From contig CAZWJT010000006.1 in assembly GCA_964634935.1 (NCBI GenBank), positions 10,189 through 74,188 of the forward strand: a stretch of 64,000 nt of DNA, in the 5' to 3' direction. Shown piece by piece: positions 36,001 to 63,000 of this stretch. This stretch comes from an uncultured Planctomycetia bacterium (lineage in GTDB: Bacteria > Omnitrophota > Gorgyraeia > Duberdicusellales > Duberdicusellaceae). A program made the position numbers and the translations under genes. Within the stretch, counting starts at the first letter, position 1. Each line of letters begins with the position of its first letter. The notes below the pieces were generated by a model that had not been told where the DNA came from, ran no database searches, and was given only the letters and a program-made list of their open reading frames with translations.

Positions 36001-39000
36001 CAGCCGGTTTATGGTGCAGAACACAGAGGTTCATTGGGGGGAGCGTTTCTTGGCCACAATGATAAGCATGCATCAAGCCTGGATATCCATAAGCTTGAAG
36101 CGGTAGTAAGAAACTTTGGTTTTCCGACCTGTTTAGCCAACGCATGCTTGCTTATTTACCTCATACGATTGTACGGCGAGCAAGCTGATTTGGGGGGGAT
36201 GTTTCGCAGAGGAGAAGATCATCCTTTCCAATATGTTGTGTTGACTCAAAAATGGGGAGAGCGGGATATAATGCCTTATGATGAAGATTGCGATGATTAT
36301 GAACGCACAGAAAAAGTTCATGGAGATGATTACGACCGGGGCATAGCTTCCTTAAGGCGCAGCGGTTATCTTGCTCGTGCAGAAGAAGAGCTATCCAGCC
36401 ACGCAGTAAATGAGAAAGAAATCACCAGTCTTATTAATCCTGTTTTTTCCCAACAATCTGGTTATTGCGCGGTGGTTATCTTGGTTGCAATGATGCTATC
36501 AGTAGTACCTGTATTCTTTGCTATGCCCGGGGCAAAGGCACTGGCCGAACAAATTCGCTTGACCACATTATCCCAACAACCGTTGGTAGCTCAGGAACCA
36601 CTGAATCACAATAGGTGTTGGCCGATGATTCAGGCTTGTATTGAAAAGAACGGAAGTGAAAACGCCCTAAAAATGAAAAGAGGTATTGAATTATTAGGTT
36701 TGGGTGCTCTGTGGAAACAGGAGATTTTTGAAGACCTCAGAGCGCTTGAGTGTGTTGAGGAGATACGCTGGAACAATTTTGTGCTTTCTAAGGAAGCGGC
36801 TTCTCGAGCCATATTCAGTGACCATTTTTGGATTGAAATAAAACTTAGGGGTGACAAAAAATGGTATGTGCTTGATAGGACGATTGGTCAGTTCGCGGAT
36901 GTTAAAGTGTTTATTTCGATGGGGGGGATGATGTATCTGCCGCGCATTCTGACGAAATATTTCATGAAAAAACAAGTGATCACCAAAGACAAAGCATTTT
37001 TAGGTATTTTTTCCCAGTATGATAAAGCCAAAGGCTTTTATGGGCTTAAGAAAGACTATCCGTTCCAGGGAAGACCGGAATACAACGGATGTGCAGATAA
37101 AAAAGCGAATAGTCAAGGATTGTCTCAAGGATCAAATCGTGCTGCTCGGAAAAAACATACTCAGGGATCCGCGTTCAATATATCCGGTAACTTACCCATT
37201 ATTGTTGTTTCTCTTTCAGTAATATTTTTTGTGCTTTCAACTTTGGGCATAGGAACCATCATGCATGCCAGGTCTCCAACGTATTTCGCAAAATTCAAGC
37301 ATGCAAAAGAAGCCAGAATTATTCATCGTTCCGCTTGTTTTCCTCGTAATGACTTGGATGATATGATGCGAGCTGCCCGTAAGATTATTTCCATGAGCAA
37401 GAAAAGGGAGATAGGCGCCGATCTCGCCGATAGATATGTCAGTGATTTATATGTGAGGTTTCTTTATTTTGATGCCGGACTCGAGAAATCACGCCAGCGC
37501 TATCCAGTGGCGGCGATGATTGTTGACGAGGATGGATTTGTTGTTTCTAAGGGCAGACGGTTTACCTACGGCGGGATGAGGGATTTCATTCATTCCGAGC
37601 GAGATGCCGTAATGAATGCTTCGCGAGAAACCTGCGCAAATTTTTCTCGTTGCACCCTTGTTACAACAATGGAGCCGTGTTTTCATTGCTCACAGCTTCT
37701 CAACCGTTGTCGTTTTCAGAGCGTGGTTATTGGAAGTCTCGAGAATAATATTGCAATGTTTGGCAACAGCATCCAAGTTATCAATAACGGGTATACAAAA
37801 ATTATCCCGGTTGCGTTTCGTGTCACACAACTGCTGTGTCGTAGCGGGTATCGTGACAGAAATATTCTCTGGCAAGAGCGGGCTCTTCTGTATCCGATGA
37901 ATAGGCTGCGGGAACATATGTATTTTCTTCTTGGCTATTTTCTCTATCGCTATTTTGGAATTCTACCAGGAGGGTTTATCCGTAAAGCAAGGAAGCGCCA
38001 TGCGTTTGGCTGTGTTATTTTGGCGTTGCGCGAGGCATTTAGAACAGGCAATCCGAGCCAAGTTGGATTTCTTTCTTCGTTTCTATTGCACTCAGTGGCC
38101 CCTGTTTACAATGTGAAGGGCCTTGGGCTTATGTTTATGCCTTATTATGAATGGCTTCAAAAGCACCTAACCGATAAATATCATGACAGATTGAATCATG
38201 TCCCGTTTGCTGTTGTGTTGATTGGCAACAGTCAGAACAGATGTCGTGCTCGCCAATTGCTTGACGGTCAACGCGCCCTTGGGAGGGAGAATATCTGGGA
38301 ATTGACCGGCATTGATACAGACGAGGATGTGTATTTAAAAACAGATGATTCAGTTATGCTCTTAGCATGTCAGCGTGATTTAAAATTGCTCTGCTGCCCC
38401 CATATTGCTTCTGTGGCAAAAATACTTGCGCGAGGATTAACCTTTTTAAGGGAAACAAAAAAATCTGTTGATAGGAGTAAAAAGAAAAACGCACAAAGCA
38501 ATTTGTATCGCTCGCACAATCTGGGTTTTTTCCCCGGTAGTGGTGTTATTTTATTGTTGATGGTGCTGGGTGTTTTTTCGTTGGCGGTAAGCGCAAAAGG
38601 CGCCAGGCTGATTTATGCAGGCAATGATCTTTTTACCCCGGTTTCCGCGGTAAAGAACCATATTGTCGCTTTGGTGCGAAACGGACAGAACGAAGCATTG
38701 GCATTGCGCTGGGATCTGCGTTTTGTGCACTATCAGGAATTTATCAAACATGCCGCAGCAATCAACGAAGCAATCATTGAATTGCTCAAAGACCCTGATT
38801 TTTGTTTGGATCATCCTGGGTTTATCAAACAGGCACTACGCACCAGGATTGAGATGATGGACCACGATGTTGTTCCGGTGAACAAAGGCGGATATATCGC
38901 TGGGCTTTCCAGGAGCGGGAAGGTAGCGATAAAGAAAGCAAGGGTTGGAATATCACGCAAGAGAATGAGTGAGCGCATCCTACGCGTACTTGCGCGGTTA

Positions 39001-42000
39001 ATGGCACCTCGCGAAGATTGGTTTTTATCTTTGCCGGAAAGCACAATCGCTCCTTACCGTGTGAGCGTATATAAGAAAATGTGTTTTTTACCAACGCTTG
39101 GCTGTTCAGTGCAGTGTGATCACTGTTATGTCTCCGCACCTTTCTGCGTGCATTCTTTGCCCTATCCGTGGATGAGCCAAGTTGTAAACACGCAGGCTTG
39201 CCGTGGTTTTATCTGGCAGTTAGGGGATTATTGGCGGGATTATTACGATTGGGTATTTATGAAATCTGCCCCGCATCTTGTTCGGGATATGTTTTCGTTA
39301 AAGTCTTCACTTCCGGTATTACGTCAAACAATGAGCAGTGGCGGCATCAGGCCAGGATCCGTGACCGCACATTATCTCGGAAATCAGAACGGATTTTTCG
39401 GCAAACACAGCCCATGGCATCAGTTCCAATTTAGCATTACTCCAAGCGTTGAAACAAGAATTTTGGGCAGACGCTACAATGAATTTTTACAGTATAATGC
39501 GGGAATTTTAAAATGGCTTGAATATCTTGGATGTACGGTATCATGCACGCATTACCGTATACAAAGAGATAGTGAGACATGGCCATTTGATGCCGATCTT
39601 ATACGGCAGATAACTGGTATTTTTTGTAAGGATCATAAGGTCGAAATGAGCGGACGTCTCAAACAACTGGAAAAGCGAGGGATTGGTTTTACGTGCAGAG
39701 GCAATACATTTATTGATCCTTTGGCACCCCATGATTATAAACTTACCGAAGATGTGCTTCTCGCCGATGGAAGCATGATTGATTCCAATTTTTTAGTCAA
39801 TGATGACGGTCAATCAAAATACAGATCGCTTGCTCGGGCAGCAGGCCTGAAATTATGCCGCGACTGTTCAATAACCTGCGCCAAGCGAGAAAGTTGTTTA
39901 CGGGAACAAGGGTTAACTGAGGATGGCGGTCTCCGCCAAGAATGCATTTTTAGTGGTTTTGTCCCTAGCATGGCCATTTTTGGGATTTTTCTTATCGGAT
40001 TTTTTATATTTTTTACCCCTTTGCGTAATAGAACACGAGTTTCTCGCCGGAACGTCGAGCCGTATGTGCGTTATTCACATATGACGCAGCAGAAATTTCG
40101 CGCTATGGTTTTACAGCTGAAAGATTGGCAGTTAAACCAGAGCGAACAAAAATCATTAGAGCGCTTTCTCAATATTTTCCCGCTGCTGGAATCAGTGAAC
40201 CGTGAAATGCGCATGAATACGCGATTTCCTCGTTTATGTCAATGGGCAAGTCAGAGGCTAGGCGAAGTATTGAAAGAGCATCAAATTCCTTTTAGGATCG
40301 TAATGAAACGAAACTTTATCCGCAAGCAAAGTTCGTTATTCCCGAGCGATGCAATAATTTATACAACCTGGATTGACGATGAAGAAGATACCCATATGCA
40401 TCAATATCCGATCATCGAAGTAGCTGGGATGGAATTCATTGTTGATATAACCGCTGATCAATTCGTATTCCAAGTTCATGAGCAATATGGAAAGTATAAA
40501 AATCTTGGGATATTTATTATTCCCGTTACTGCATTGCAAGAAAATTCTTGGCCGTATTCCGGAGGCGATGAATTCGCAGTGCGATTTTCTTCTTGCGCTT
40601 CCGTCGTTCTATCCATCCAGAGCATTAGTTTGGTTTTCTTGTTGTTCGGGGTATTGGTTTTGTGCGTAACGTATAAGGGCGTTGTGGCCAAGCTTTTTAA
40701 GCAGCACACGGAAAGCTATAGGGTGAGAATCGCAACTGAATTTTCTGATATCATACAGATAAGAAACGTGCGTTGGAATAAGTTCGGACCAAGAGGAAAA
40801 CAATATATTAATTCATGGCGCGATACACTTGATAGATATGATACCCAAGGATTAGCTTTGAACTTAGTGGTTGAAAGAAAAGGCCGCTTTCCTTTTCGGC
40901 CATGGACGTGTGTTGTAGCAACTGCCCGGCTTCTGTTTTACCGCGAAACTGATTTACTTCCAGCAGAGCAGACTTACCCTGCAGAATTTGCCCAACTCAA
41001 GACTAATTCGTCTGAGCATATTGCAGAAGTATCCCGATTGGCGAGCATCGCCGAGAAAGATACTCTTAAAGTTATCTTAGAGCTTTATCGATTTATATTC
41101 TATATTGCAAACGCCATCGGGATAAAAACATTAGTGATGGTGCATAATCCAGAGGATCAAGAATTCTATGCGGGTAATCTCTTTCCATTCCGTGTGATCG
41201 CTGATTGCAGTCAAGCGCGATACCTTGGTTTTTCTTCAGAACCACATCACGCAAATCGTGGCCTTCCGGCGCAGTTGTTGGCCCTTGATTTACATGGTGT
41301 TTATAAAGCTTCACAAGAAGTTGCCCATAAGAATGGGAGTAAAACCAGGAGTCAAAGAACACACGGATATTTTTACCATAAATGGAATTTTGCCATTGAG
41401 GATTGTCCAAAACTCGGCTGTCAGCTGGCAAGGGCAGTACGAGATGGAGTTATTCCTGAAAGCATCTGGAATGCGTATCGTTCGCAAGTCGTTCCGACTG
41501 ATACCTGGGCTCGGATGTTTACCTTGTCGATGCGCGGGAGTGCTGAAGCAGAACTAAAACGTATGTTGTTGGTGCATATACCGCGTGCGACAACGCCCAT
41601 GAATACAAAAGGAGTGGAAGATTATCTTACCGTGTGTGTTACTACAGGTCCACCTCTTTGGGTGTTGCTTGTGCTCTGTGCTATGGCCGCCGTATTCTTC
41701 CAAAATGTCTTTGCTGTTGACGATGGCTTTTCAGGAGCCGAGGAGTCCGATCAGCCTATCGATTCTCCCAAAAGGTCAGGGGCGAGCGCGTTTTTGTGGC
41801 TTCAGATCCGAGAGCCCACTGAGCTTTACCATACAACACACCAAGGTGTTTCTCATTTTCTCTATCGTGTAAGCTCAAGAGGAGCTATGCCTATGTCAGA
41901 AATTACTATTTCCAATGATTGGGCAGGAGGGTTGCGAGAGGGTAAAGAATCAATTTCTGCTCGTGCCGTTTCTTCCATAGCTGCGTATGATTTCTTTTTT

Positions 42001-45000
42001 CCGGATCCATTTTTTATACTTACCGTCGTAACTTTTTATCTTTTTATCCGGAAAATGAGCGGAGATAGAAAAGTAGAAGAAACCCCCTTTACCAGGTTAG
42101 AGGTTCTTGAAAATAAGCGCAATCCCCTTGGTTCGTTGGAGGAGAGATTAAAAGGTGGTAAAAAAACAATTACCGTTGAACTCTTGCCTTCCCGAAAAGG
42201 CAATATTTTAGATCAACAGCGTTTTCTCGAGCAAAAAGCGCTCTACAAGAGATTATATCTGGAAGGGATTATTGATGGGGTTACTATGGTTGATGCTCCT
42301 CGGCTTGGCATCATTGGAGAGAAAATTCTATTGTTCCTTGAGAAACTCTTGCCGGATCGGTTCAAGGCAATGAAAGCAATCAGCGCCCATATCGGTTGCT
42401 TTGAAGATCCGCTTACTGCTGGTTTTTGTGATATACCTGGTTATTTTGCCACGGTTGCTGCGCAACTGCGGAGTCGTAGGCAGATTGAGCGGCGCATAGA
42501 AAAATTTGTGCATCAGGGAGTGAAAGTTATTTTGTTTGTTTCGGGTAGCCATCCGTTACGTAGCATGCGTGGGTTACGGTGGTTCTTCGCCCGTCAGAAT
42601 GCGCTTACGATGCTTACTTTGGCGGCGCGCATGCAACAAGATGGGCGAATCTCCAATGACATACAATTCTGCGTGGCGGCTAATCCTCAGGGTGAACCGA
42701 CATCTGATGAAGCGATAGTGCATTGCTTAGAAAAATCAATCCGCGGGGCTTCTTTTGTATTTTTGCAGCCAAGATTTTTACGCAACAAAACAACGACAGC
42801 GGTAAAGATGATCTCGGAATCCGGATTAAAAATAGTGGAAGGAGTTTCTCTTATCAGCTCAGTCAGGAATCTTTTCTTTTGGTTCTGGCTAGTCAGGGTT
42901 CATCGAGAGCATCATGAGGCACGAACGCTTATTGATCAGTGGTTTGCCGCAGAACAACAGGGTGATTTAAGCGATTTTATCGTGAGCTGGAACCAAGAAC
43001 AGCTTCGCAATCTTTGGAGGACATCGAGTATCCATTATATGCCTATTGCCGCTTGGAGATATCTCGAACCTATTTTCCGGGCAGCGGGGATATCGAAAGA
43101 GGTCCGTTTGCAGGAAGATGCTTTGGGGCAGCATGCGCTCAGGGCAAGGGCGCTCTATCAAGCGGCTTCTTTGAATTTTTCAGTAAGGGAATATTTTTAC
43201 TCTATCGCCGATGTTCTCTGTGCGCTCGTTCAAAGGGCGGCTGAATTGGGGATTATCCAATTACGAGGTCCACCCGAAGATTTTCCTATAGCGATTTGTG
43301 ATTCCGACACCCGCCGCATAACATTTTCTATCAGTCCCGACGATATGTTGATAATTTTGTGGAAGTTGAAGACTGTTTCTCCTGAGGATATCTTAAATTT
43401 TATCTGGGAACACGAAAGACTTCATGAGAAACATCCTTCTTTTAGTGAACAGAATGTTCTGCAGATTCAAGCCGGGCATATTCTTTCAAATCGGTATGCG
43501 TTTTCCGGAAGCGCAAGCGGAACAAAAAAATATGCTGTTTTTTCAGTAAGTGATCCGAGTTTAGTCCAGGGGGCTTCTTTTGTTATGACTTCTTGGGTTG
43601 TTATTTATATTCTAGGCTTGTTCTTTTTGGTTGGATATTGTATGGTGCTTAGTCCCGGGGTTGCCTGTCCGCCCAGGAGTAAACTCGCCGATAGAATTAT
43701 TGCCTGGGAGAATCTCGACGCCTACCAAGATCTTCTCAAAAAATTAATTGAACAACATCGCGGCCGGATTATGTTTTTGATTCATCCAGGTGGAGGAAAC
43801 GTCGGAAGGATGGAAGACGGGCGGTACGAAGCGTATTATCCAATGGCTGATGTTTACATGGAAAATATGCGAATTTTGCTGGAACAAGAAGATGGGGTTG
43901 TTTGCGTTTTAGGGGGTGATTTTAGTACCTTCAATGGCGTTTATACAAAAGCGGTCATCGTTTATATTCCTTCAGACCAGCTGAGCCCGGTTCCTATTTT
44001 GGATCGAGTTCATGATGCGCAAATTTCCTGGGAATCTTGGGATCGTGTCATTGAAGTTCTTCAGGAATTTGGTGTTACGAGGTTGTCACCATTTGGCGGT
44101 GAGCGCGCTTCATTCGATGCGGATGGGAAAGTGTGCGTTACATTCGATCAAGCAAAGGTTGTTGGGTGTGTTGGTAGAGCTTTACATGTTCTTCAGGCCC
44201 ATTTTTCCATTACCGTGTTTCCACAACTGTGCTGTGATTACTCAGCGAATACGCATCTTTCCGGAAGGCGTTCACTAGATAAGGGAGCCTACAAGGTATT
44301 ATCAAACGGTACAAGCATTCGTCAGGATTTACCGGTAGGTTCGCCGTTCCTTTCTACATCCATTCCGGAATTACAAGATCGAATTATATCCAAAGCGCAA
44401 GCAGGTGACTATTCAGTTTTACGATTACACTGGAATTTACGTTTTATGCACTATCAGGAGTTCATCAAGCATGTTTTAGCCGTAAATCTTGCTGTACAAA
44501 AATTATCTCAGGACGCTGTTTACTGTGCTGGACATCCGGGTTTTGTGCGCCAAGCAATTCGAACTCGGATCGAAATGATCGATAACCGGATCATTCCCAT
44601 AGAACATGGTGGATATTTAGCATCGCTGACTCAAGAAGGAGAGGCAGTCGTCTCCAAAGCCTGGGACAGTATATATGACGAAGTCAAGCTTGTTGAGCAA
44701 GGCAGAAAAATTTTGGATATTCTCATCGATCCGAAAATGTCTTGGTTTATTCCGATCGATTCCAACGATCGGTTTGTCAATATTGATTGTACCGAGATAT
44801 CTGATTTGTCTGCCACGCTTGGATGTTCTACCCAGTGCGATCATTGCTATATCAACGCGCCATTCTGTGTTTTTTCTATGCCGTGGCCGTGGATCATGCA
44901 AGCAAAGGAAATTTTTCCTTCCATTCTCCCTTCTTGGATGATTGGTGACTATTTGCGGGATTATTTCGACTGGGTATTCTTCAAATCTTCAATTGACATT

Positions 45001-48000
45001 ATCGATCTCTTCTTTGGTTGCGATGAAGATAAGTCGGAGTTGATCGTTACTTCAGGAATAAGACCAAATTCAGTTGCAGCGTATATGCTGCGCAATTATC
45101 TTGATCGGCATGGAATGCCGTTATTGTATAAAGATATACGTTTGAGTATCGCGCCAAGCATAGAATCAAGGCTGTTGAACAGAATATCCGGAGCCAAAAG
45201 AGATTCGGCGCCCGAAATTGTGTGGCAGTTTATGGAAACTTTGGCACCGCCATCCCTGATATATCAGTATCCGATTCATCGCTATGGCGATGTTCCGTGT
45301 TATCTTGATTCCATAAAGTCGACAAAAAACCCGCCACAAATCATCAGCTTTGCTGTTGAGCCGCTAGGAAGATATGTCCAGCTGAAAAAAGCCGGGGTTT
45401 CTTTCCAGGGGGTAGTCGATACCTATAATGAGGGTTGGACGGGATCCGAACGAAAATATCTGTTTGCGGATGGCTCACTTATTTTTGGTTGGCAGGAGTC
45501 AGCGCGTTCTCAACGGCAACCAGCGCATAACATGGTAATTCCGCCTCTTGCCCGCACCGTTCAAGGTAAAGACTTATGCCGTGTCTGTCGAGTTCATTGC
45601 AGGAATCGCCAAGAGTATCTTCACGATTTAGGATTATCAAAATTTGGCGGAGCTGAACCAAGCCAACAAAACTCCTCTAAAACTTCCGCGGTTTCGTCAA
45701 TATCGCCGACATTGGTGCTTACGGTAATTTTTATCGTATTTTTGTTTTCCGCTGTATTTTCGCTGAGCCCGGCTTCTCGAAAACCGCAATTCGTGTGGAG
45801 CAGAGAAGGAAAAAGTCTCGGTTATGCTCCGCTTGATCTAAAAATTCCGCTTATCGTTTCTCGCTTGCTGCAAAATCATCAGCTTAGCCGTACACCACTT
45901 GTGTCCATGCGCCGGCTGAGCAACTTTACCGGCAAGCGGGTTTTTCTCAAAGATGAATCTTGTCAGATTTCCCATTCATTCAAAATGCGCGGTGTTCTGG
46001 CAGAAGTGGAAGAGGCAGTCAGCGAATATATTGCGATGATCAAGAAATCTTATTTTCCGAGCGCAATGCCTTTTTATGTTGTCACTCAGACTGTGGGTAA
46101 CCACGGCATCGCGATGATTGAAGCAACCCGTTTTTGTATCGAGAAATACAGAAATATTTTTCCCCAATACCAACGATGGATTAACGGTATTGAGCCGGTT
46201 GTTTTTACCACAATATTACTTCCGGCAGTAAAACGGGCGGGTCTGCATGACGCGTTGTCTTTATACCGGATGACTGTCGGCAATAATGAGCAAGGGGCTA
46301 TATACGATAGATTCGGAACCTATGCGCAAGCACGCATGGGACGGGAAGCGTTCATCGCTTTACATCCCGCGAATGCTGTTTACATGGAGCACGGAGGTTT
46401 GACGATTATGGCCGGGCATGCTTCTGCCGGGATAGAAATTGCCGAACAGCTTCAAGAGCGAGGTATCAACAAGGCAAGAAAGGTTGCTTTACTTATTCCC
46501 GTAGGAGCCGGCGGGCCGTTGGGTATTGCCGCGGGATTAAAAATGGAGATGCCGCATGCGGCTTCGGTTATGGTGCAAACGGACCGGTATTCGGCGTTCG
46601 TCCGCAGTCTTATTGCCGGATCACTTATGAATAATGATTTTACACAAATAGAACCGCTTGTTATCAAAGGGAAAGAATTCGTTTTTGAGGACGGCATTGC
46701 CGTGGATGCTCCGGAAAAGGAAGCGATACATATCGCTCAATCCGTTCTTGATGCCGCAGTTACGGTAGATTCTTTGAGTGCTTTGAATCGCGGCGCCATA
46801 ATTACCTATGCTGACCTCGCGGATTTCTACGCTGATCGCGCCGTAGTCGTGGGAGGGACTACCGCCGTAGCTGCCGAGGCGCTTTTGGAACATTCCACTC
46901 ATCTCGAGTCGCTCCGCCAGGCGGATGTGATCGTGCTTTTCGGCACCGAAGGCAATGTTGATCCTTGTATCACGCAATATATCAAACAACGAGCGCAAGA
47001 TAATAAATCAACAAGCTTATTATGCTCGCCAGCATGGTTGGGATTTTCCCTGATCGGATTGATACTGATCGGGATAGCTATGCTGCAATATTCCGCGCAG
47101 CTGCCATTGGAGGCGCATTTTGATAAAGATAGTTTAAGTCAAAAACGAGATATGTTTACCAATTTTCGGATAAGCTGTTCTGCGGATAGGCAAAGACACG
47201 ATTTAAGAGTCGGTGATATTATGCGGCGAGAACTTCCGTCAGCTTATTTTGCCTTCAGATGCATGTTGGCAGTGCGGTTTATCCTTGACGAATATGCTCC
47301 AGATAAACCGGTTATTGTATGGCAGAACGAGCGCCTGGGGACACTTTATCCATATATCAATGACACGCTTAAAAAAATGTTCGGGATCGTTGGGATTACA
47401 AGGGCTGACCTTATTGCTCCAGAGGCGATCAGTTCCGGGATAAGACAGGCGCGTTTTGTTTTGGTGCGCGAGAAAATTTCTTCGGAGAGACCCGAGCATT
47501 CCTGGTGCCTGGATGCGGTCAGGAAATTATCTATAGAATTAGCTGCACCGATCGTGTTTATCGATCACAGCGAACATCATTTCTCTGCGGCGCAATTATA
47601 TATTCAGAGCGTTGAAAATAGCAAAAAAAGGCAAACCATCGAAGTTGATTGCCGGGGGAAAGCGCAGGCGTATATTCCAGAAGGCGCTTTAGCGCAAAGA
47701 CCTTTCTTTATTCTTGTGAATGCCAATGTATATCCGGGGACGCGGTCGCTGTTTGATGATAATGAGTATTTTCTTGAACCATCTAAGTCGTGCGTCGTAG
47801 ATTTGCAAGATGAGCAAATAAACTTCTATTTAGCCTTTAGGCGTTTCTTTGCGCAAGAGATTGTCATGAAAAAGAGATATGATGAATCACGTTCTTTCTC
47901 CATAAGTCCGGCTTTGGCTCTGAGCGATGTCTTCCCCGATATGAGGGGTAAGGGTAGCCGCGACAGCAGTGATCATAGTATTAATTTATCATTAAATCTG

Positions 48001-51000: not shown

Positions 51001-54000
51001 TTGCATCCCAGAATAAAGTCTCCGGTGTATTTCTTACAGAAGAAATCAGCTGCAAATGTCTCTGGGTTGCTTTCTGCGCAGATTTACTATACCTTCGCTT
51101 TAGCCAAACCATTAAACAGTAGATTAATATATTTGATTGTTTTATCTTCTCATGGGATGCTTGATGAAGCAACTGTTAACGAATTGCGCCGTATTCAAAA
51201 AGAATTCGATGTGCTGATATCTTCCTCTACTAAGATACAAAGAGAAATTGATCATGTCATGCATATATGGGGAGTAAGGCCTGAAACGAATAACAGGGAG
51301 GATGCTAATCAGAAGGGTTCGGAACCGGTATATTCTTTATCCATGGCATTATTACCCATATCTGTAGTTATGATTGCCTTGGGGATATCTCTTTTAATCT
51401 TTATTCTAGCGGTTCGCCCGGGAGAATTTTTAACTAAACCATGGATACGGAGTAATGCGTTGGTTGTTGCGGCATCGCTTTTTGGCTTTGGACTCGGCAT
51501 GGTCTTTGTTCTCTGGCTCGTATTAGGTAACTTTACGATCGCTGCTTTTATTGGCGTGGTTTATTTTATTGGCTGTTTCATATTTATCAAACAGCTGGAA
51601 CAGGATAGTATTAGGCAGTCGTTAGAACAGGACAGAGAAGAAGCGCAGTTAAGGCAAGCGCGGGCGAAAGAGGATAAAAGAAGAAGAAAAGAGAAAAGAA
51701 GAGAAAGAAATGAAGCTGTCAGGGCAAAAGCTGACAAGTTAAAACAAATGACCCCGGTTTGTCAAAAATCTATTAAACAGCCAATGCCGCAGAGGTTGCC
51801 AATAAAGCCGGTTAAGAATGCCAGACAAATTTTTGAAGAGCATTTACTGGGATTTGTTGTGGGTGGTCCTACCGCAGAAGACAAAGAGAGGATTAAACAG
51901 TTTGTTTTATACTGTGACATTACCGGGACGTCTTCTATCTGGGCTGCGGTATGCGCGGCATTTTTTACGCGAGATATTCATGGGCAATACCTTTTCAGTG
52001 AACGCAGCTTGGCCACGTTTTTACGACACGTTGCTTCTTCTCAATTGTCCATTACAATCGGATGGATCAAGAATTTTATCGCTCAGGTAGAAGAAATGAA
52101 CCAGCTCGTCGAAGGTGATGGCAGGGTTTTGCGTAAACGTGATTATTTAGCATGCCTGGCAATCGTCGATAGCTTAAACTTGCACCGGCCGTACTTATTG
52201 CCTACGCAAGGAAGAGGCATCGCATTCGCGGAATTAAGGTCATTTAAACAGAGGCGGACGGCATTTATCCAAGGAGAAATTGATCTTTTGCGCTTGCGCA
52301 GTACGATAGCTTCCATTGTGCTGGGTGATGAGGTGAAAGAATTATGTAGTGAAGTCTCGTTGCTGTCTCCTTTTTTTGTGCGGCATTTAGTCGAAGAGTA
52401 TCCCGAGGGTGAGTTTTTCGGTCGGGATAATCAAAAAGTGCTTCATCGACAGCTTGGATTAAAAACGGGCATTGGACTATCCGCCATGAAAACAACAGTC
52501 GCGCAGGAAGTATATTTTGCGAATGCAGATTATATCGGGTGGCCGTTCGTTAAGGCGTTCTATCAAAACAGGATTTCTTGCCGGGAACGCACCATGCGGC
52601 ATTTGGAAAAGTTTTGCGATATAGCTGATATGCAGAGTAGCTATGCGGAATATCAACATGAACTGGATCGAATTGAAGCATTGCTGGTATCGGTTCCTTT
52701 TTCAATCGAATATCTCGATAGATGCGCCAGTCACACTATGCGCGATATGAGTAAAAATAAGCAATTCGCTTTATCAGCGACCCGTATTACGGCCATAGCG
52801 ATGAGTCGTGGCTTTATTCTATTGTCTGATATCAGTCAAAGCTCCAGCTTTCCCGGGGTCGAAAATGCCCAGTTAAAAAGATTGCTTTTACAGCATGTCG
52901 AGATGGTGCTTGCAGATATTTCTGCAGCAAAAGAACGGGAACGGCAGGCCTGGCAGGAGGAGAAAGAAAAAAGAAAGCAAGTAGAGTTACTTTTAGCTTC
53001 GATCGCGGTTTTGACGCGCGAAGGAAGATTTAGCGAAGCAAAACCTTTGGCGCAAGCTGCCTCCGAACTCGATAGCATCGCGTTTCCGCTTTTTGTGTTA
53101 GTGAGTGCACCGGTTGAAAGAAAAGTTTTTGAGTCACAGCTTACAGCATTGGCTTTTGCGTTGAAGGAGCAAGATAAAGCGCGGATTGCCCGTAGTGCTG
53201 CCTATTTTGCTAATCTTATGCAAGAGTTTGCACAGGTTTTAGGGTTGCTTTTGTCTAGGCTTAATTTTTCTGCGGATATTTCAGAAAGTCAGGCAGAGGT
53301 TGATGTGGCGATTTTTTATCTGCTTACGCAATTACTTCCTGGAGAAAAGACCTTAGCATTAGCGCAAAGAGTCGTTGGTTTTATTCATTACCAGGGTCCC
53401 CAGCAAGATGCTGTTTTAAGCGCAGGGATAGCGTTTTTTGAGTCTATTCCCATTCCTGATATTATCGAAAGAGGCGCGCGTGAGGCGCCATTAGAAGTTA
53501 AAATCGCCAGTGATGAAGAGGCGATGATTACCCAGTATCTTGGGGAGATCGGACAGTATCGGTTGTTAACACATTTAGAAGAAATTGTTCTTGGAGTCAG
53601 AGCCCGGTGCGCGGCGGGTAAATCAAGAGAAAAGGCGATTGAGGCACTTATCTTATGTAACCGCCGGCTTGTAGTTTCTTGGGCAAAGAAATATCGCTGG
53701 TCAGGAATTAACTTTTCAGACTTGGTTGGCGAAGGAAATCTTGGTTTGATACGGGCGGCAGGAGTTACAAGAAAGAATAAAGTTACTGGGCTACCAACAG
53801 ACAAGGAACCGAAGGAGCGGGAATACAGGAAATTCGATCCGGCGCACGGAAGCAGGTTTTCTACTTACGCATCGTGGTGGATTCGTCAGGCAATTATCCG
53901 ATTCATAAAAAGCAATAGAGGGCAGATTCGTCTGCCGGAAAGTTTACGGCAGGCAATAGACGATTTTAAAGCATTGTGTGCCCAAAAAGGGTTTAATCCG

Positions 54001-57000
54001 GAAGATCCCAACCTCACCTCGGAAGATGTAGGCATGCTTCCGCAACGATTTAATACTATCCGCGCGGGAATGTTTTTAGTATTTTCGCTTGATCCTGGAG
54101 GAGAAGAAGTTGACGAGAGACAACCTCGTTTAGCCGATGTTATCGGTGAACGAGACGACAGTATTGAGCTATCATCGGTAGAGAGAGTTTTACGCGGAGT
54201 AGTTGCAAAAACAGAAAGACGCCTGCGGGAACAATGGTCAAGGGTCAATTCACAGAAAGAGGTTGAACGAAATATCTTGATATTTGAAATAAGACTTGCG
54301 TCTTCATTAGGGCTGGGGATAGCAGAGTATTCAACTTTGGAAGAGACTGGAGAAAGAGTAGAACTTACTCGTGAGAGAGTAAGGCAGATAGAGAAGCAGG
54401 CCCGTCCTATTTTTGAGGAAGAGCTATTATCCTCCGGTGTGACCCTAGAGGAAATTAAAGGGTTGCGTAACAGTGTCCAAAACCGTTCCAGAGATAACTC
54501 TGTTTTTTCAAGTCCCGCGATCGTTACGCCGGTAGCGATGGATGGAATAAGCAACTTCAGCTTGCTTGCTTTTTTGTGCATGAGTTTATTTGTGTTTTCG
54601 GTATTATGGGCAACTCAAAATCCGCGCAGCCCGCCGCAGGAGAGAGATGCTCATGTTTCTGCTGCAACCCACAAGAAAGAAAAACTCCTGCCTGTCATTC
54701 AAAAGAAATACGGCCTCGGGAATATTTTACATCTCGAAGATACCTTTAATCAGGCACGCATCATCACGGTGGTCATCTTTGGATGTATCGGTGCTCTGAT
54801 CGGCGTTTTGATACACGTTTCTCCTGGTTCAGGCTATTTAGGGCTCATGATCTCGGCTGTCATTGGCGGAGTGGTTTTGATTGTTGTTCATAATTGGATA
54901 TTTCCTAAGTCACCAGTCCGAGAAACCGAAGGGATACTGAGCGATCTGGAAAGGTCTTCTTCGCCGGAAATCTTGGACGGTATTTTCCGAGCGCTTCGCA
55001 TTCAATCACAATCCAAGGGGTTTATACAGCCAGTGGATTTATTGCACGGATGGACGGCGGGCGTGGTTCAGGAAGTCGGAGAATTTGCTTCTCCATCAGG
55101 GCATCCATTAGCCGCATTGCCGTTACCTTTTTCAGTTGTTCATCCTTTGGATGTTTTTGCATATGATAATTCGCGAGAGTTCATCACCTATGCATTTAAG
55201 ACAGTTTATGGAGAACTTGGGGTATCCGAGGAAACAATGGATGGGATTATCAGGATTCTTACCGATTCATACGGTCAGGATTTATCTACGGTAGCGCGTA
55301 GTCTTAGGGAATACATCTTATCAAGGGATATTGCGGATATTTTTGAGCGATACAGGCGGCAAAATTCTATTGATAAGAAATTTGAATTGGTGCGACCATA
55401 TCTACAAGGACCAGTAGTTGCGGATATCGGAACAGGAACCGGGGAGTTAGCGTTGCGTATCCTTGATCGACTTCCACAGGTAAGAAAGGTTATCGCAACC
55501 GATTCCGTATCTTATCTTGGGGTAACACATCCGCAGATAGACTTTAGACAGCAGACCCATGAGAATGCGCTCCCTCTAGAATCGGGATTAGTCAATACCG
55601 CATTGCTCAGTTATGTTTTTCATCATATGAGCCGAGACACACAGCAGGATATTGCCGATGAACTTTATCGTATTCTTGCTCCCGGAGGCAGAGTTGTCAT
55701 CCTGGAGGATACCTATTCTGCGGTTTTACCGGCACAACAGTCGAGTGAGCTCATGAAGCGTTTTGTGGCACTCGAATATTTAGCGCAAATGCGGGTTTTG
55801 GGTTTGAGCGACTGGTTGAGTTTTCAGGTATTCCGCGGATTTGATATCAGCTTAACATTCACCTATCGCACCCTTGAATCATGGGCAAGGTTCTTTGAAG
55901 CGGCAGGTTTTCGTATTCTGCAAACAGATTTTATCGGCCGGCCCCAGGGTAATTTTCACATAGTTCCCCGCGGATTAATTGTAATCGAAAAAGTTTCCGA
56001 AGATGAGAAGGAATTTGATCCTAGGCCATTATTCCCAATCCGAGCAATCATGCGGCACGATCCTCATCTTTGCGAAGGTGCGCTCAATATTGGCACAGTT
56101 CAGAGAGATCCATCGTTAAGCGGTAAAGATATTCTCGGCTTTAATTTTGAGAACATCATAGATAAATTCCGCACCTTTATTTTAAGGCATAACGAAGAAG
56201 AACTAGCGAGTCTCACGCTGTGCCAAACACACGATGCGATATATTTTAGGATCCGCTTAGCTGAGCGGTTGAGGAACAAAGGTATCGGCAGTGCGTGGTT
56301 TCATGATCTCCTTGTGCCTTATTTTTCAAGCCTTGCTGATTCAGGGATACAAGATATACGTACGTATTGGTACTGCGCAGAAGGCGGTTATGGCGAATTT
56401 GTCATGGAGAAACTACATTTTGCTCATAAAAGAGCGATAACCCTGGATACCCATGAAATAGTATATTTTTGTGCATCAATGGTGAATAGATGTAGCCCTA
56501 TTCAGCCAGACAAAGGTGTTGGTCAGTCTTTGGACCAGTCGTCTTGCTCTCAGCTTGGCGTTGCTTTATCTGGAACAGGAATCATAGGATCACTGATTTT
56601 ATTCTGTGTGTCTGCGTGCGTCGTGTGTATGTTAGCGCATGCATCGCAGGGCAATAGGGTACGTGTTTTAGATTCTTCAGACAGAACAAGCCCGGAGAAT
56701 TTGCTTGTAGGTGAAAGTGTGTTTACCCCGGTTGATGTAATCGCGCATGATATTTTTCTGCAAGCACGAAATGGTAACGCCTCAGGGTTTAAATTACGCT
56801 GGGATTTGCGCTTTATGCATTATCAGGAATTCATTAAGCACGCCGCGGCGATAAACATCGCAGTCCGAAAACTCGTCCAGAGCTCACCGCGTTATAGCCG
56901 AGAAGTAATACGCCAAGCGCTTCTTACGAGAATCGAGATGGTCGATCAAAGCATGAAACCTGTTTCCGAAGGAGGATATCTGGCGTCATTATCGGAGAAA

Positions 57001-60000
57001 GGAAGGGGAATTGTAGACTGTGCGAGGAAAATAGCTGTATCCCGTAATTCCAGGAGAACTATTCTTTTGTATCAATTAGAGCGGCTGATCGATGTGCCAT
57101 TTGATTGGTTTACGTCTTTATCCTATCCCTCCCCCCAGCAGCATCTGTTCATTGGTTTTATGCCTACAGTCGGTTGTTCTTCTCAATGCGATCATTGTTA
57201 CTTGAATACGCCATTCTGCGTCTATAGCATGCCGTGGATCTGGGTTAAGCAATTGCTGCAGCTGTGGCCGCACATCCGTCCAATGTGGGAAACCGCCGAC
57301 TATATCCGAGATTATTATGATTGGGTTTTTGACAAAACAGCAGTGGATATTATCAAGGAATGCGCCGAAAATATTTTTGAAGATAATTTTGCTTCGATTA
57401 GTACCTCAGGGATTCGTCCAGGGTCTTCCGTTGCTTCTGCCTTGAACGGATTATGTCAGTTTTTGTATGACAGAGAGTATCATTTGCGGATGCAATGGAG
57501 TTTTGCTCCGAGCGTTGAATTGCGGATATTGGGAAAAGAAAATTTTGTGAAGATGCTTGAATTCAATGCGCTCGTCATGCGCCAGATTCGTCAATCCGGG
57601 GGTGAGGTTCTCCTCCCTTGGTATGATTTTTGCCGCGATAGCGACCAGGACGTAGATGTTGCGTCTTTGCTCATGTCATTCGCTGGTTCCGCTTACGCAC
57701 CAGAGCCAACGCCCTGGATTGCGGAGAGGGGAAGATTGCGCGCTTTGCAAGCACAGGGAGTAAGATTTGTTTCTCATGCGACGAAGTTCTATCAGGGGAA
57801 CATGCCCTCTGATGATTGTTTGTGTTTATACCGCGTTATGCCCAACGCGACCTTAGGCAAAAGATCGTTAGACCGCGATCAGGACGTCAATTATGTCCAT
57901 GAACGGTCGCTGCTGAAAGATGAAACAGGTGATGGTAAGACAAAACATACTTTGTGTACTGTATGTAATCTGAATTGTCCTCAGCGAAAAGAATGTTTGG
58001 TTACCTTGGGGTTATCGAAAACCGGGGGCAAGGTAACTCGTCTATCGAGTTTTGCCGTCGAAACGCCATTCACAACAACGGGAAGTATCGTCATCGCAGT
58101 GTTTATATTTTGGTTGTTGCTTAGTCCGCTCCATTTTTCTCGGGATAAGCGTGACGCCAGAAAAAAGCAGAAGGCGCAAAGGTATAGAGATTTTTTAGAT
58201 AAAAAAGGCAAGCCAGGCATGCGAATTTCTTCTCATGTTTCTGCGCGAATTCGGGAAATTAAACCCGGTAAGATCGTTGATCCGCTGGAGCAGTATATAG
58301 TCACTAAGCGGGAGCAGTTTAATTCCCTGTATTATATTTTCACGGACCTAATTAATCAAGATGGTCCGCAGAGTGAATATATCTTGCGCAGTGTTCCCGA
58401 TATCGCAGGTTTTCTGTATCTGGCCAATCTTTTGGCCGAAGAAATTCCGCAAACAAAATGGGCTGATTTTATTCGGCCGATCCATACCGGCGATGGTTTT
58501 AGTTTCGATTGGATTCTTTCCATTGCTCAGTTATCCACCGAAGAAGAACGCTTTATGGCTCTTTTAAGGCGGATCATGCAGATTGATCAAACTCCGCTTA
58601 CAATGCTTTTTGAAGGTACGAGGAATCGGTTACGCGGATATGTACGAGGCGGTTTATCGGTAGAACAATTGTATGCAATGGTGTGTTCCATTAAACGGGA
58701 CTATCGGTTATGGAATCAGCGCGAAAAAGCGGATGCCAGGGATAAAGCCATAAAGCGAGAGAAATATGTATCCTCATTTATGAACAGCCCGCTTGATCTC
58801 AAACGATTTGCCATAATGAGGGCGTTGAATTTCCGTATACCGCAACATATTCTTACACCAAAGAATATTACTGCGCTTTGTTTAACCGATGCCTGTCCGC
58901 TTCAATGTCGGCACTGCTTGCAGGGGTTTACTGGGAGGGGTAAAGCTTTAACCGAGGAAGAAGTCTTGGGGGCGGTTGATTATTCCAATGAGCAAAATGT
59001 ACATGGTTTGCTTTTAAGCGGCGGAGACGCGTGGCTTAAAAAAGACTTGGTACGGGTTGCAATTTTAGAAACAAACGCAAAGATTGTCAATATTGCTACA
59101 ACCGGTGTCTGGGCAAAGACGCTTGAATCAGCGCGGAGTGTTTTATCAGAGATACAGACAATGTACGATGAGCGCGTAGCTTCTGGTAAGAGGCCGGTTA
59201 AAATTAGCGTTGATTTAAGTATCGACGCGTTTCACCGCGGACGGCACATGAACAACGATGGGAATATTGCTGATCGTGTCCCGGCAGCGTATGTTGCCAA
59301 TCTTGTTCAGGTCGCGCTCCAGGAGTTTCCCTTGCTGCGCGTAGGTTTAAGCGGGCAGATGATGCTGCCGATGGATTGGCAAGATGAAATATTAGTTGAG
59401 TTTGCCAACCGGGGTTTACAACCGATACTAAGAATTACCGATTCTCTTCAGGGTACTACTGATGCCGGCAGAGAAGTTGAGTTTATGACGCAAGGAAAGA
59501 TTATTTTTAAGAACAGCAAGTTTGAAATTGGTTTAGTAAATATGGCAACTGTGCAAATAGGACGAGGTGTTTTATTGTACTGGGATGAGATTGTCAGCCA
59601 GTGGAATACGGTTTTTATCGATAAGGATGCGCTTAAAATTCCCAGTCAGGTTAGTCTGACAATATGCGGTGATGGTCAAGTATACCATGGGGATGAAAGC
59701 GTAAAAATTATGACGCTGGGATCATTCCGTAACAGATGTGAAATACCATCAACTATTGCGCTGGAAGACAGAAGAAAAGAAGTGGCGCAGCGCTTAAAAG
59801 AGATATTGCACTCTACCTGTAATGATCCGTTGGTTATTCTTCGCTATGTCCACCCTGTTCTGATTCGCCGGATTGCCGAGGAGATAGCAGGACCCCAAAG
59901 AATAGGTAATGCTGGACCTAATGTCTGGAATGTGTATTTACAATATCCTGAAACCAGACTTTATTTAACACAATATGCAGCGCTCATTCTTGCAGGATTT

Positions 60001-63000
60001 CATTCTCAGAGCAAAGATGTTTTTAAAAAGATGAATTCTCCCGGGCCGATCTATACACCGGCGGATTTAATGAATGCTGGTATATCGACTGATGTCCGGA
60101 TATTGCAAGCCGAATACAAACGCAATAGAGAGAATCGGCTCAGAGATAATCCCGTACCGTTTGACGATATTGACGAGATTAAGCCGTATCAGCGCTATGT
60201 ATCAATAGCTCAAAGAGAAGAGTACCGGCGCCACGGTTTTTGTGTCGATGAAGCAACGGGCCGTCCTTATAAACCCGGTACTTTAGATGAGCCAGCATGG
60301 TTTTCATCTTCTTCTATCACCCCGGTGATGACCTTTGATGGGTTTACTGCATCTGTTGGTTTTGTGTTCATGCTGTCGGTTGCCGCCCTTCTGTGTTCGG
60401 TTTTATGGGCAGCCCAGAATCCGCGTGATCCGCCACACAAGAACATAGAATTTACCTTTGGTCATGAAAGTCATCCCAATATCCCCAAGTTTCATCGAGA
60501 AGGTCTTGACAAGAGTTTTTTCCCATCGGAAGAAATCGTCGCAGTTTTAGAATCACAAGATAAAAAAGGTTCTTTGGAAGCCACCGTTACTCTGTGTGAA
60601 GAAAATAATGTATGTATCTGTCTTGTCCTTATGCCAGTTGGTGAAATTCTGGCAAGGATAGAAATGAGTAGGCAGGATTATATTGTAGTGACGAGACGAA
60701 ATCCGACACTGCCACGCGATATTACGGATATCGTTATGAAGCAGGATAGTACTGTTCGAGAGAGCGATCCTTTTTGGGTGGGGGATGTGATTGTTACTCG
60801 GAAGTATTACGCCCATTTGCATTGGATGGCCGCTATTACACATTTTGAAATTCATCCCTGGATACGCCAAAGAGGGATTGGGGATGCGTGGTATAGAAAA
60901 TTTGTTGAACCTTACATTCGGCAGTGTGGTTTCGATATTATTCTGGTGAGAGGAACCTGTCTGGATGATTTGTACATTAGTAATTTCTGGTATGATCAAG
61001 GTTTTTCTGAAAGCACCCCATTAACTCAGCTGATCGGTGGCGAGACACTCATGGAGTATATTTCGGTAAAAAAATTGGATTTTGTATCGCAAGAACCGAA
61101 TCGGGAAACAACCAGTGGAACAGAGAGTCAGGAATCATCACGGTCCAGTGTTCCTTCGCTTATGATCGGCGGCACGAGTAGCACGCTTCTTCCATTCTTG
61201 GGTTTTTGTGTTCTTGCCGTTTCGGTCTTGTGGGCAACAAGAAATCCTCGACGTTTGCCCTTTGGGTATCTTACCATTGAAAAAGCGCAAATTGATTCTG
61301 TTGATGAAATCGCAGATATATTTGAAAGAGAGCTGATGCCTCTTTATGCGGATGATGTAGACGGCAGTCCCTTGTGGACAAGGCAGAATTATGCACAAAG
61401 TGTGCATGATATGATCGCAGGGACAAACGAAGGACGGGAAATTGAAGCTGTTGTGTTGGTAGCTCGGGTTGACGGCTTTATCATTGGCTATATATCAGCC
61501 TGTTTTTATCCGGAAAATAATTGCGGAGAAATAAATGAGATGGCAGTTGATAGACGTTACCAAAAGCGCAAAATAGGCACCAGACTTTTGGGTGAGGCGG
61601 TTGCTGTTCTTAAATCCATTCCGCACATAAAAAAGGTTACGCTTACCGCCGACATATCTCAGGGAGAAAGATCGAGTCGGATTGCCCGTAAACTTGGTTT
61701 CCGGGATGAAGATGATACTATGACTTTCCCGATTGCCGATGACACAAGACGGAATCTTCTTTCTCTCTGCCCCGATTTTATTTTTCCGGTTGCGGTGATA
61801 GTATTTTTTGCGTTTCTCAGCATGAGAAGGAAAGAAGCTTTTACGGAAAATTATAACCCGGACACAAAAACAAAAAAGATTGAGGTTGCTGATGGCGATG
61901 ACCCTCATCGTGCCAAGGAAAATAATTCACTTCCTCAGGATAAGTTCGCGCGGGAAGAGGCGATCCAAAGGGAGATTACCCGGAGTACAGTTGTAGGTGC
62001 GCTTGGACGGCAATACATTATTGATGCTTCTTTACAGGTGCAATATGTTGTTCCCCAAAAACAATCCGAAGTAAGATATATTTTAGGTCAGATATCAGCT
62101 CTCAAGATTCGGGCTGGGCCATTTGCTAACCTTTGGGGAGTCATCCGCGCTGACACTCTCTATCTCGATGATTCACTAATAGATCCCTTAAACCGAGATG
62201 AACTTTTGCTTACCTTATTACACGAGGCGTCTGCTTTAGCCTATCCTCGAAATTCAGATAAAGAAAACGAATCTTTTGCCAAAACTTGCAGCAAACCGCT
62301 CAGAGAACAAATAGAATTTAATTATATCGGTGATAAAAGCAGCGGGCAATGCAGTATTTATCAGGTGGGTTGGATTATGAATCATCTCTATGCAATGCTG
62401 TATGCCCACAAGAAATTGCTTGAACGTACGAGCAGTGAATTTGGTCCTATTGGGCGTGTTTACGAAGGAGCGTTTTTAGTCGAATGCGGTATGTTTCAAG
62501 TTACCCCTGCAATTGTTCTCAGAAGGTTGATTTCTTTTATTCCGGCTATTTCCGGAGCAAAAATATTTGATTTCGGTTGTGGTGATGGTTGGACGGCATT
62601 TCGTTTAGCTGCGTATGGCTTTTTCGTTGATGGAGTTGAAGTTAACTCTCAGTGGGTTACTATGGCAGAGCAGGCTAAGGATAAGCTTTTTTCGTGGGCT
62701 AACCTTGTGCGAGATACAACCCTAAGCAAAAAATTAGAAATGGTTGCCAGCGCAGTTTCAATCCGTGAAGCAGACATACTTCAACAAAAATTTGATTTCT
62801 CTCCGTATGATATTGTATATCTTTATTATCCTGAGCCACGCGCCGAATGTGAAACATTTCCCGTAGATGTGGCGCGGGTTTTAACCGATTTCCACTTAGG
62901 AATGAATTTAAACGCGCGGTTTGTTGTCACTCGCCAACGTTCAATCAATGCTCCGGTTTTTCCCGGCTTTGTACGCTTACCTCAAGAAGAAACAATTATT

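Follow-up and report, generated by a model that had tools for sequence, protein, structure and literature searches.

The DNA analyzed here, referred to as the window, is a stretch of 64,000 nucleotides of contig CAZWJT010000006.1 that is occupied by a single giant open reading frame (ORF). Frame 0 of the + strand contains no stop codon from nucleotide (nt) 1 to 63999, corresponding to at least 21,333 amino acids (aa), and both ends of the window are open. None of the other frames is open over 300 aa or more, and the longest complete ORF listed outside frame 0 in the 50-64 kb region covers 231 aa. The content of guanine and cytosine (GC) is approximately 45% and the GC skew is positive throughout. 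The subject of this study is a cassette that occurs three times in the giant ORF, built from a Ser-rich lead-in with an acidic or Gly end, a hydrophobic stretch of approximately 18-22 residues and an exit motif of ten residues. The ORF and the cassettes are listed below; the bit scores are those against a profile of the three copies.

1 to 63999, + strand: giant multi-enzyme membrane protein ORF that holds all three cassettes (frame 0 without stop, Pfam modules, 50-65 hydrophobic segments)
54502 to 54642, + strand: cassette 1, aa 18168-18214; VFSSPAIVTPVAMDG lead-in, hydrophobic helix, then SVLWATQNPR-SPP (93.4 bits; decapeptide at nt 54598-54627)
60301 to 60441, + strand: cassette 2, aa 20101-20147; FSSSSITPVMTFDG lead-in, helix, then SVLWAAQNPR-DPP (91.4 bits; decapeptide at nt 60397-60426)
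61126 to 61266, + strand: cassette 3, aa 20376-20422; SQESSRSSVPSLMIGG lead-in, helix, then SVLWATRNPR-RLP (84.9 bits; decapeptide at nt 61222-61251)

The exit motif S-V-L-W-A-[TA]-[QR]-N-P-R has exactly three in-frame occurrences, at nt 54598, 60397 and 61222, and the Ser preceding VLWA is invariant. The expression [VI]LWA[TA][QR]NPR likewise gave three matches in the ORF (aa 18201, 20134 and 20409; nt 54601, 60400 and 61225), each inside one of the intervals for which the initial annotation had claimed recurrent anchors with a common exit motif, and in this respect the annotation was correct. The motif contributes a Trp, an Asn-Pro pair and then an Arg in each copy. Each of the three decapeptides closes a hydrophobic segment at its C-terminus, and these segments have a Kyte-Doolittle mean of 2.0-2.35 over 19 residues. 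Copies 2 and 3 are drawn as helices in a low-confidence AlphaFold model, where the helix of cassette 2 comprises model residues 14-39. All three cassettes are internal, and the ORF runs on for 900 to 3,100 residues beyond them.

The Trp of such a motif would be interfacial and Asn-Pro a helix stop, and by the positive-inside rule the side with the Arg would be the cytoplasm. The wording "membrane exit", also taken from the initial annotation, is reasonable, since a fixed motif ends the hydrophobic helix and the charge polarity would place it on the cytoplasmic side. The turn TPV(A/M)..DG, which had been ascribed to all copies, is present in copies 1 and 2, but copy 3 has VPSLMIGG instead.

Common descent of the cassettes and their surroundings

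Given the amino-acid composition of the protein, the decapeptide should occur 1.3e-8 times by chance, as compared to the three occurrences observed. The profile hidden Markov model (HMM) of the three 47-aa cassettes scored its members at 85-93 bits, whereas no other site in the 21,333 aa scored above 4.9 bits. An all-against-all comparison of approximately 100 hydrophobic windows, from the ORF and from the relative described below, identified the trio as the only convincing family within a protein (E-values of 7e-11, 6e-7 and 2e-4). The remaining within-protein pairs were marginal hydrophobic matches with E-values of 0.001-0.04. Such marginal matches speak for a resemblance by chance between hydrophobic helices of low complexity, but the expected number of occurrences, the distance between the profile scores and the content of W, N, P and R, which are not low-complexity residues, make this explanation practically negligible. 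We conclude that the three cassettes are homologous and share an ancestor, rather than resembling each other by chance, and that they are the only set of anchors in which common descent is still visible.

The conservation is concentrated in the exit motif. In a three-way alignment, 8 of the 10 columns in the motif were invariant, as compared to 5 of the 39 columns elsewhere in the cassette (Fisher p 1e-4), and the helix outside the motif has diverged almost completely among the copies. At the DNA level, the average identity of the copies in a column of the alignment is approximately 68%. Among the 10 motif codons, 8-9 show no change at positions 1 and 2 but only 4 at position 3, with synonymous differences in the codons for Val (GTA/GTT/GTC) and Arg (CGC/CGT/CGA); the codons for Leu and Pro vary too. 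Because the motif is conserved while the third codon positions differ, we conclude that the duplication is old and that the peptide has been kept by selection at the amino-acid level.

An origin as a recent DNA-level repeat, through tandem duplication, gene conversion or a recombination scar and with no selection on the peptide, would agree with the distance of 825 nt between copies 2 and 3 and with the rearrangement of modules in such genes. However, the copies are only approximately 68% identical, their differences lie at third codon positions and the rest of the helix is diverged. This origin is highly improbable, and a recent repeat or gene conversion is ruled out by the codon-position pattern. 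Since all sides of the helix end are conserved in one contiguous run, the motif would represent a linear element at the interface between membrane and cytosol rather than a helix-packing surface.

The similarity among the copies is limited to the linker. Self-BLAST aligned copy 1 with copy 2 over 76 aa at 31.6% identity (E 1e-5; aa 18140-18214 versus aa 20073-20147), starting approximately 35 aa before the helix, and copy 1 with copy 3 over 36 aa at 47% identity (E 1e-4). No alignment was obtained downstream of the linker, and the domains after copies 2 and 3 displayed no detectable mutual similarity (E 0.12), while copy 1 is followed by a helix hairpin and a methyltransferase. These results do not support the earlier proposal that the motif was duplicated together with its downstream domain, although an ancient tandem duplication of an anchor with a GNAT domain is conceivable. 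The features surrounding the cassettes are the following.

53527 to 54402, + strand: sigma-70-family module with regions 1.2 to 4, ending approximately 35 aa before cassette 1 (Sigma70_r2, r4 and r1_2; RpoD/RpoS-type, E 1e-36)
54418 to 54501, + strand: approximately 28 aa upstream of cassette 1, weakly alignable to nt 60217-60300 before cassette 2 (self-BLAST)
54760 to 54906, + strand: two-helix hairpin, aa 18254-18302, approximately 45 aa beyond cassette 1 (hydropathy)
55369 to 55923, + strand: methyltransferase dependent on S-adenosylmethionine (SAM), downstream of cassette 1 (Methyltransf_25/23/11; 56% identity to P0001)
58882 to 59106, + strand: radical-SAM core of the module before cassette 2 (PF04055, PF13353)
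60427 to 61140, + strand: 238-aa domain between cassettes 2 and 3, with a stretch at nt 60862-60918 resembling GNAT motif A (local match only)
61273 to 61704, + strand: GNAT acetyltransferase, RimI-like, starting 7 residues past cassette 3 (PF00583, E 4e-13, 50 bits versus a cut-off of 20.7)
61756 to 61812, + strand: next inter-module hydrophobic helix, aa 20586-20604, not a member of the cassette family (hydropathy, profile, window comparison)

The initial annotation had placed a GNAT domain directly after both copies 2 and 3. This is supported for copy 3, where a second family, PF13302, matches residues 7-150 of the piece after the cassette, but not for copy 2. The 238-aa domain gave no match in Pfam, NCBIfam or the PDB (hhalign probability 0.3%), and phmmer on the local set was also without support for a GNAT identity. 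The observed likeness is a local one, between RQRGIGDAW...FWYDQGF in this domain and RNKGIGSAW at aa ~18757-18775 (E 2e-4). Two single-sequence AlphaFold models of this domain had a predicted local distance difference test score (pLDDT) of 35 and were thus unusable. The GNAT domain after copy 3 has a homologue without a preceding helix in P0003, a long protein that is distantly related, and the methyltransferase after copy 1 has homologues in many long proteins. The sigma-70-family module exceeds the TIGR02937 cut-off; it is a complete module of this family that sits inside a giant membrane protein. In the long relatives P0007, P0010, P0026, P0028, P0069 and P0100, sigma-like modules are also present, in some cases more than once.

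Module content, relatives and distribution of the cassette

Many distinct Pfam families tile the giant chain, and none of them dominates it by copy number. Among the modules are PALP (enzymes dependent on pyridoxal phosphate, PLP), an M54 peptidase, a phosphorylase, an amylase, HEAT repeats, a glutamate dehydrogenase (GDH, 198 bits), an SF1 helicase, a trypsin-like protease, a CheR-type methyltransferase, a dCMP deaminase, FeeM, radical SAM, signal peptidase II, sigma-70, methyltransferases and GNAT. Between the unrelated modules lie 50-65 hydrophobic segments, one per approximately 330-430 aa, as called from hydropathy and not by DeepTMHMM.

Three modules of approximately 500 aa are paralogous to each other with 33-40% identity (nt 38536-40095, 44323-45762 and 56572-58206; aa 12846-13365, 14775-15254 and 18858-19402). 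They display an invariant GCSxQCDHCY, with the spacing CxxxCxxC, and a C-terminal Cys cluster. They are radical-SAM-like but below Pfam detection, and at least two of the three are flanked by helices on both sides.

This content resembles that of giant proteins already described. The "multi-enzyme metabolic cluster" giants of Omnitrophota have approximately one helix per 370 residues and contain methyltransferase, GNAT, radical SAM, signal peptidase II and HEAT modules (10.64898/2026.06.07.730766). As in the class 1 giants of Nielsen & Lui 2026, a single ORF of at least 10,000 aa combines many Pfam families with a similar helix density. Sugar enzymes and old internal domain repeats that have diverged at the DNA level are further features in common with the giants of Omnitrophota and the Planctomycetes-Verrucomicrobia-Chlamydiae group (10.64898/2026.06.07.730766; 10.1101/2023.11.21.568195). 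In contrast, conserved helix cassettes, junction motifs, a uniform helix polarity and the shuffling of modules at helices are described in neither of these two studies. The closest relative that was retrieved carries the label Planctomycetales, whereas the published class 1 giants come from Omnitrophota (class Gorgyraeia); the window contains no marker genes. We conclude that the ORF in the window is a giant of an already described kind, and that no counterpart of its cassette was found.

A profile of the radical-SAM-like module with three copies identified three loci in metagenome-assembled genomes (MAGs) labelled Planctomycetales or Planctomycetia. The closest relative, L004 (CAZRVK010000003.1:42069-63535), comes from a MAG labelled Planctomycetales and covers 21.5 kb of a 281-kb contig as one uninterrupted frame of 7,155 aa with 45% GC. 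It has ten module-sized blocks in common with the window at 30-69% identity, and their order is different. In the comparison of the two, 12 of 20 ends of homology blocks are no more than 25 aa away from a hydrophobic segment, as compared to 3.4 expected. Because the block ends cluster at hydrophobic segments, we conclude that the modules delimited by helices are the units that have been conserved and rearranged. Another locus, L006, is a single open frame of 4,325 aa.

The cassette itself was found neither in L004 nor in L006 or L007. An exhaustive representative search with aa 17801-19000 retrieved numerous sigma-like modules and methyltransferase modules from long proteins, but none of the 150 best-scoring homologues listed contains the cassette or spans its position; cassette 1 occupies positions 368-414 of this query, and the nearest listed stretch stops at 384. 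The search with aa 18101-18700 retrieved only P0001, whose 3.8-kb contig begins inside the methyltransferase module and thereby excludes the position of the cassette. No homologue was found for the segment from cassette 2 to the GNAT domain (aa 20073-20620), and the homologue search with the three-cassette profile gave no candidate. A degenerate DNA pattern for the decapeptide had 0 matches in 185,579 species genomes (596 Gb, with the whole L004 assembly included) and 0 in viral contigs. Among 5.8 billion protein clusters, no protein had three 5-residue words in common with the cassette.

In metagenomes, the degenerate pattern gave three matches, which scored 13-24 bits against the cassette profile. 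Two of them were rejected as homologues, being short frames between nearby stops with no clear hydrophobic helix ahead, and the third was rejected as an unrelated polytopic membrane protein rich in proline, glycine and alanine. This third match is in locus L002 (nt 1470-1498, - strand), where the exact sequence SVLWATRNPR stands at the end of one of the helices of the protein; it was selected by the pattern and has no other similarity to the window. We conclude that the metagenome matches are coincidences selected by the pattern and that the cassette is not common in membrane proteins. A motif of similar frequency in unrelated membrane proteins, as expected for a low-complexity coincidence, was thus not observed; the three matches selected by the pattern were the only ones in the collections scanned.

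The initial annotation had further suggested that the cassette may be a signature for a family of giant proteins, that is, a conserved sorting or membrane-exit signal common to homologous giants. The occurrence of three copies within 7 kb of one giant gene is compatible with this idea. However, the absence of the cassette from L004, L006, L007, the 150 module homologues, the species genomes, the protein clusters and the viral contigs, together with the unrelated nature of the metagenome matches, makes such a signature very unlikely.

Anchor polarity and topology of the chain

A uniform charge polarity was observed for the isolated hydrophobic segments throughout the window. In 29 of 33 cases (p 1e-5), Lys or Arg is the charged residue met first on the C-terminal side of the segment, and the order acid-helix-base was found in 20 of the 33 segments as compared to 1 with base-helix-acid; the corresponding numbers in the relative L004 were 7 and 1. 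Isolated segments of this polarity are located, for example, at aa 4019-4039, 5632-5656, 9896-9913, 13315-13341 and 19355-19380. In the pooled set of segments, Ser is enriched approximately 4-fold just after the acidic residue, and Arg comes first after the core in 28 of 46. We conclude that almost every linker in the ORF combines a Ser-rich acidic lead-in with an Arg behind the helix, and that the isolated hydrophobic segments are the places where autonomous modules meet. The lead-in rich in Ser and the basic residue behind the helix had both been listed among the hallmarks of the cassette; they are indeed present but not specific to it. Specific to the cassette are only TPV..DG, in copies 1 and 2, and SVLWA-x-x-NPR.

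All three cassettes are positioned at module boundaries and display both the hydrophobicity of a helix and the common charge polarity. We consider it probable that they are paralogous versions of the membrane anchor that the protein generally has between its modules, with the Trp/Asn-Pro/Arg end on the cytoplasmic side, that they hold the transferase modules that follow them at the membrane, and that the decapeptide has been kept by selection. The anchors would be approximately 45-75 residues long, derive from the duplication of an internal linker and be private to the gene lineage. According to this hypothesis, one linker inside the giant gene was duplicated to yield three anchors, each of which would span the membrane in the N-out/C-in orientation with the exit motif at the cytoplasmic face. 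The modules held at the membrane would be the hairpin and the methyltransferase after copy 1, the 238-aa domain after copy 2 and the GNAT domain 7 residues past the motif of copy 3. The sequence SVLWA-x-x-NPR may serve either as a fixed helix end or as a short linear recognition element.

Several considerations weigh against the interpretation of the cassettes as anchors of one intact chain. An odd number of helices separates 8-12 of 15 neighboring pairs of cofactor-dependent enzyme domains. One intact chain cannot orient nearly all of its single anchors N-out/C-in, and since the polarity is uniform and the domain pairs are separated by odd numbers of helices, plain tethering of a continuous chain is an incomplete explanation. 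A simple helix end has no obvious need for ten contiguous conserved residues. Moreover, the transmembrane call and the orientation are predictions from hydropathy and charge bias, and the conservation is that among paralogues in one gene, with no orthologue of the cassette retrieved.

A single strong helix lies between deaminase and radical SAM, radical SAM and PLP enzyme, methyltransferase and radical SAM, and GNAT and methyltransferase. Domain pairs with an odd number of helices, often a single one, are found at aa 12578-12877, 15230-15296, 18641-18901, 19350-19628 and 20567-20846. Simple threading would put enzymes with SAM, iron-sulfur clusters and PLP outside the cell.

The charge pattern of the anchors resembles that of some substrates of YidC. 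The Pf3 coat protein is a "reverse signal-anchor" of N-out/C-in orientation, in which a short acidic or neutral N-terminal flank precedes one helix and a basic C-terminal flank. The flanks and the single helix are alike in the anchors of the giant chain, but the "N-tail" would here comprise hundreds to thousands of upstream residues unless the chain is cut, and the insertion is a prediction.

If the chain is cut, the ORF could encode a bacterial polyprotein, a giant precursor cleaved close to its anchors, either within the Ser-rich lead-in or at the conserved exit motif, whereby N-out/C-in enzymes would be released and the decapeptide would be recognized by a protease or an insertase for a subset of the modules. 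The clash of the uniform anchor polarity and the parity between domain pairs with a single threaded chain argues for this alternative, and the ten contiguous conserved residues resemble a linear motif. Cleavage of such giant proteins has been suspected in the literature, although the cleavage sites are not known (10.1101/2023.11.21.568195). The ORF also encodes proteases with intact catalytic motifs as well as a signal peptidase II domain, and distant relatives carry private short motifs every 170-450 aa. On the other hand, the decapeptide is present in only 3 of approximately 50 anchors and cannot be a general junction signal, no cleavage motif common to the other lead-ins was found, and no model of a sorting signal or signal peptide in NCBIfam matches. 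The proteases in the chain may act on other substrates, and cleavage is a prediction. On balance, we regard a polyprotein as unlikely.

The trypsin-like module is located at aa ~10075-10233 (nt ~30223-30699), between two helices, and contains TAGHV as well as GFSGGP at aa 10217. The M54 archaemetzincin-like module at aa 821-920 (nt ~2461-2760) contains HEFGHLVGLDH at aa 877, and the signal peptidase II domain occupies aa ~16349-16483 of the giant chain. The proteins P0047, P0011, P0099 and P0126 are distant long relatives that share methyltransferase or sigma-like modules, and the first three have few hydrophobic segments outside localized clusters. The motif [LF][DN]NGG occurs 15 times in P0047, after Ser and before Arg, Lys or Gln; xDGG occurs 15 times in P0011, and [AS]SP[LVI] occurs 20 times in P0099 and 11 times in P0126. 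These private motifs look like junction or cleavage signals. No mention of LDNGG in the context of giant-protein junctions was found in the literature searched.

Within the polyprotein alternative, nearly every isolated helix would be the start of an autonomous anchored enzyme, with the cut made in its acidic lead-in rich in Ser, for which the trypsin-like or the M54 protease of the chain may be responsible, and LDNGG, KDGG and ASPL would be the equivalent junction signals in the helix-poor relatives; this scenario is doubtful as well. In viral polyproteins, the junctions are cut by a chymotrypsin-like protease that is encoded in the same polyprotein. The giant ORF is similar in that autonomous modules are joined in one frame with recurring junction features and with a trypsin-fold protease in cis that has an intact triad. 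Unlike in the viral case, no cleavage consensus was found in the ORF, the gene is a cellular one of at least 64 kb, and the cleavage is hypothetical.

The layout of the cassette was also compared to that of C-terminal sorting signals. In the LPXTG/sortase, PEP-CTERM/exosortase and GlyGly-CTERM/rhombosortase systems, a short motif is followed by one hydrophobic helix and basic residues at the C-terminus. The cassette shows the same order of motif, helix and basic residues, and copy 3 has GG and then Ser/Thr before the helix. It differs from these tripartite signals in that the cassettes are internal and in that the best-conserved part comes after the helix and not before it. A scan of the three 101-aa cassette segments against NCBIfam with E-values up to 10 gave no family, neither LPXTG, PEP-CTERM and GlyGly-CTERM nor any other. 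Furthermore, unlike in sortase-type systems, no cognate sorting enzyme was seen within the window, which is a single ORF.

Two other types of signal were considered and rejected. A Sec signal peptide with a site for signal peptidase I does not fit, as the core is preceded by an acidic or Ser-rich flank and the polarity is opposite; the LWA of the motif is consistent with the -3/-1 size rule, but an Arg follows at +5, and in copy 3 also at +2. A lipobox or lipoprotein signal was rejected on the basis of the wrong charge polarity and of the copies having no aligned Cys.

By itself, this private and selected family of anchors in a giant of known kind is a minor detail. At least some of the linkers carry a contiguous selected motif of ten residues. 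The cassette itself is of modest interest; the topology paradox and the punctuation of the modules that surround it are worth following up. A single, continuously threaded chain is hard to reconcile with these surroundings because the acid-helix-Arg polarity is uniform and the helix counts between domains of cytoplasmic type are odd, and the shuffling of modules with breakpoints at helices suggests that the modules are autonomous units. The value of the cassette is that it provides a handle on whether giants of 20,000-150,000 aa act as one chain or as cut pieces.

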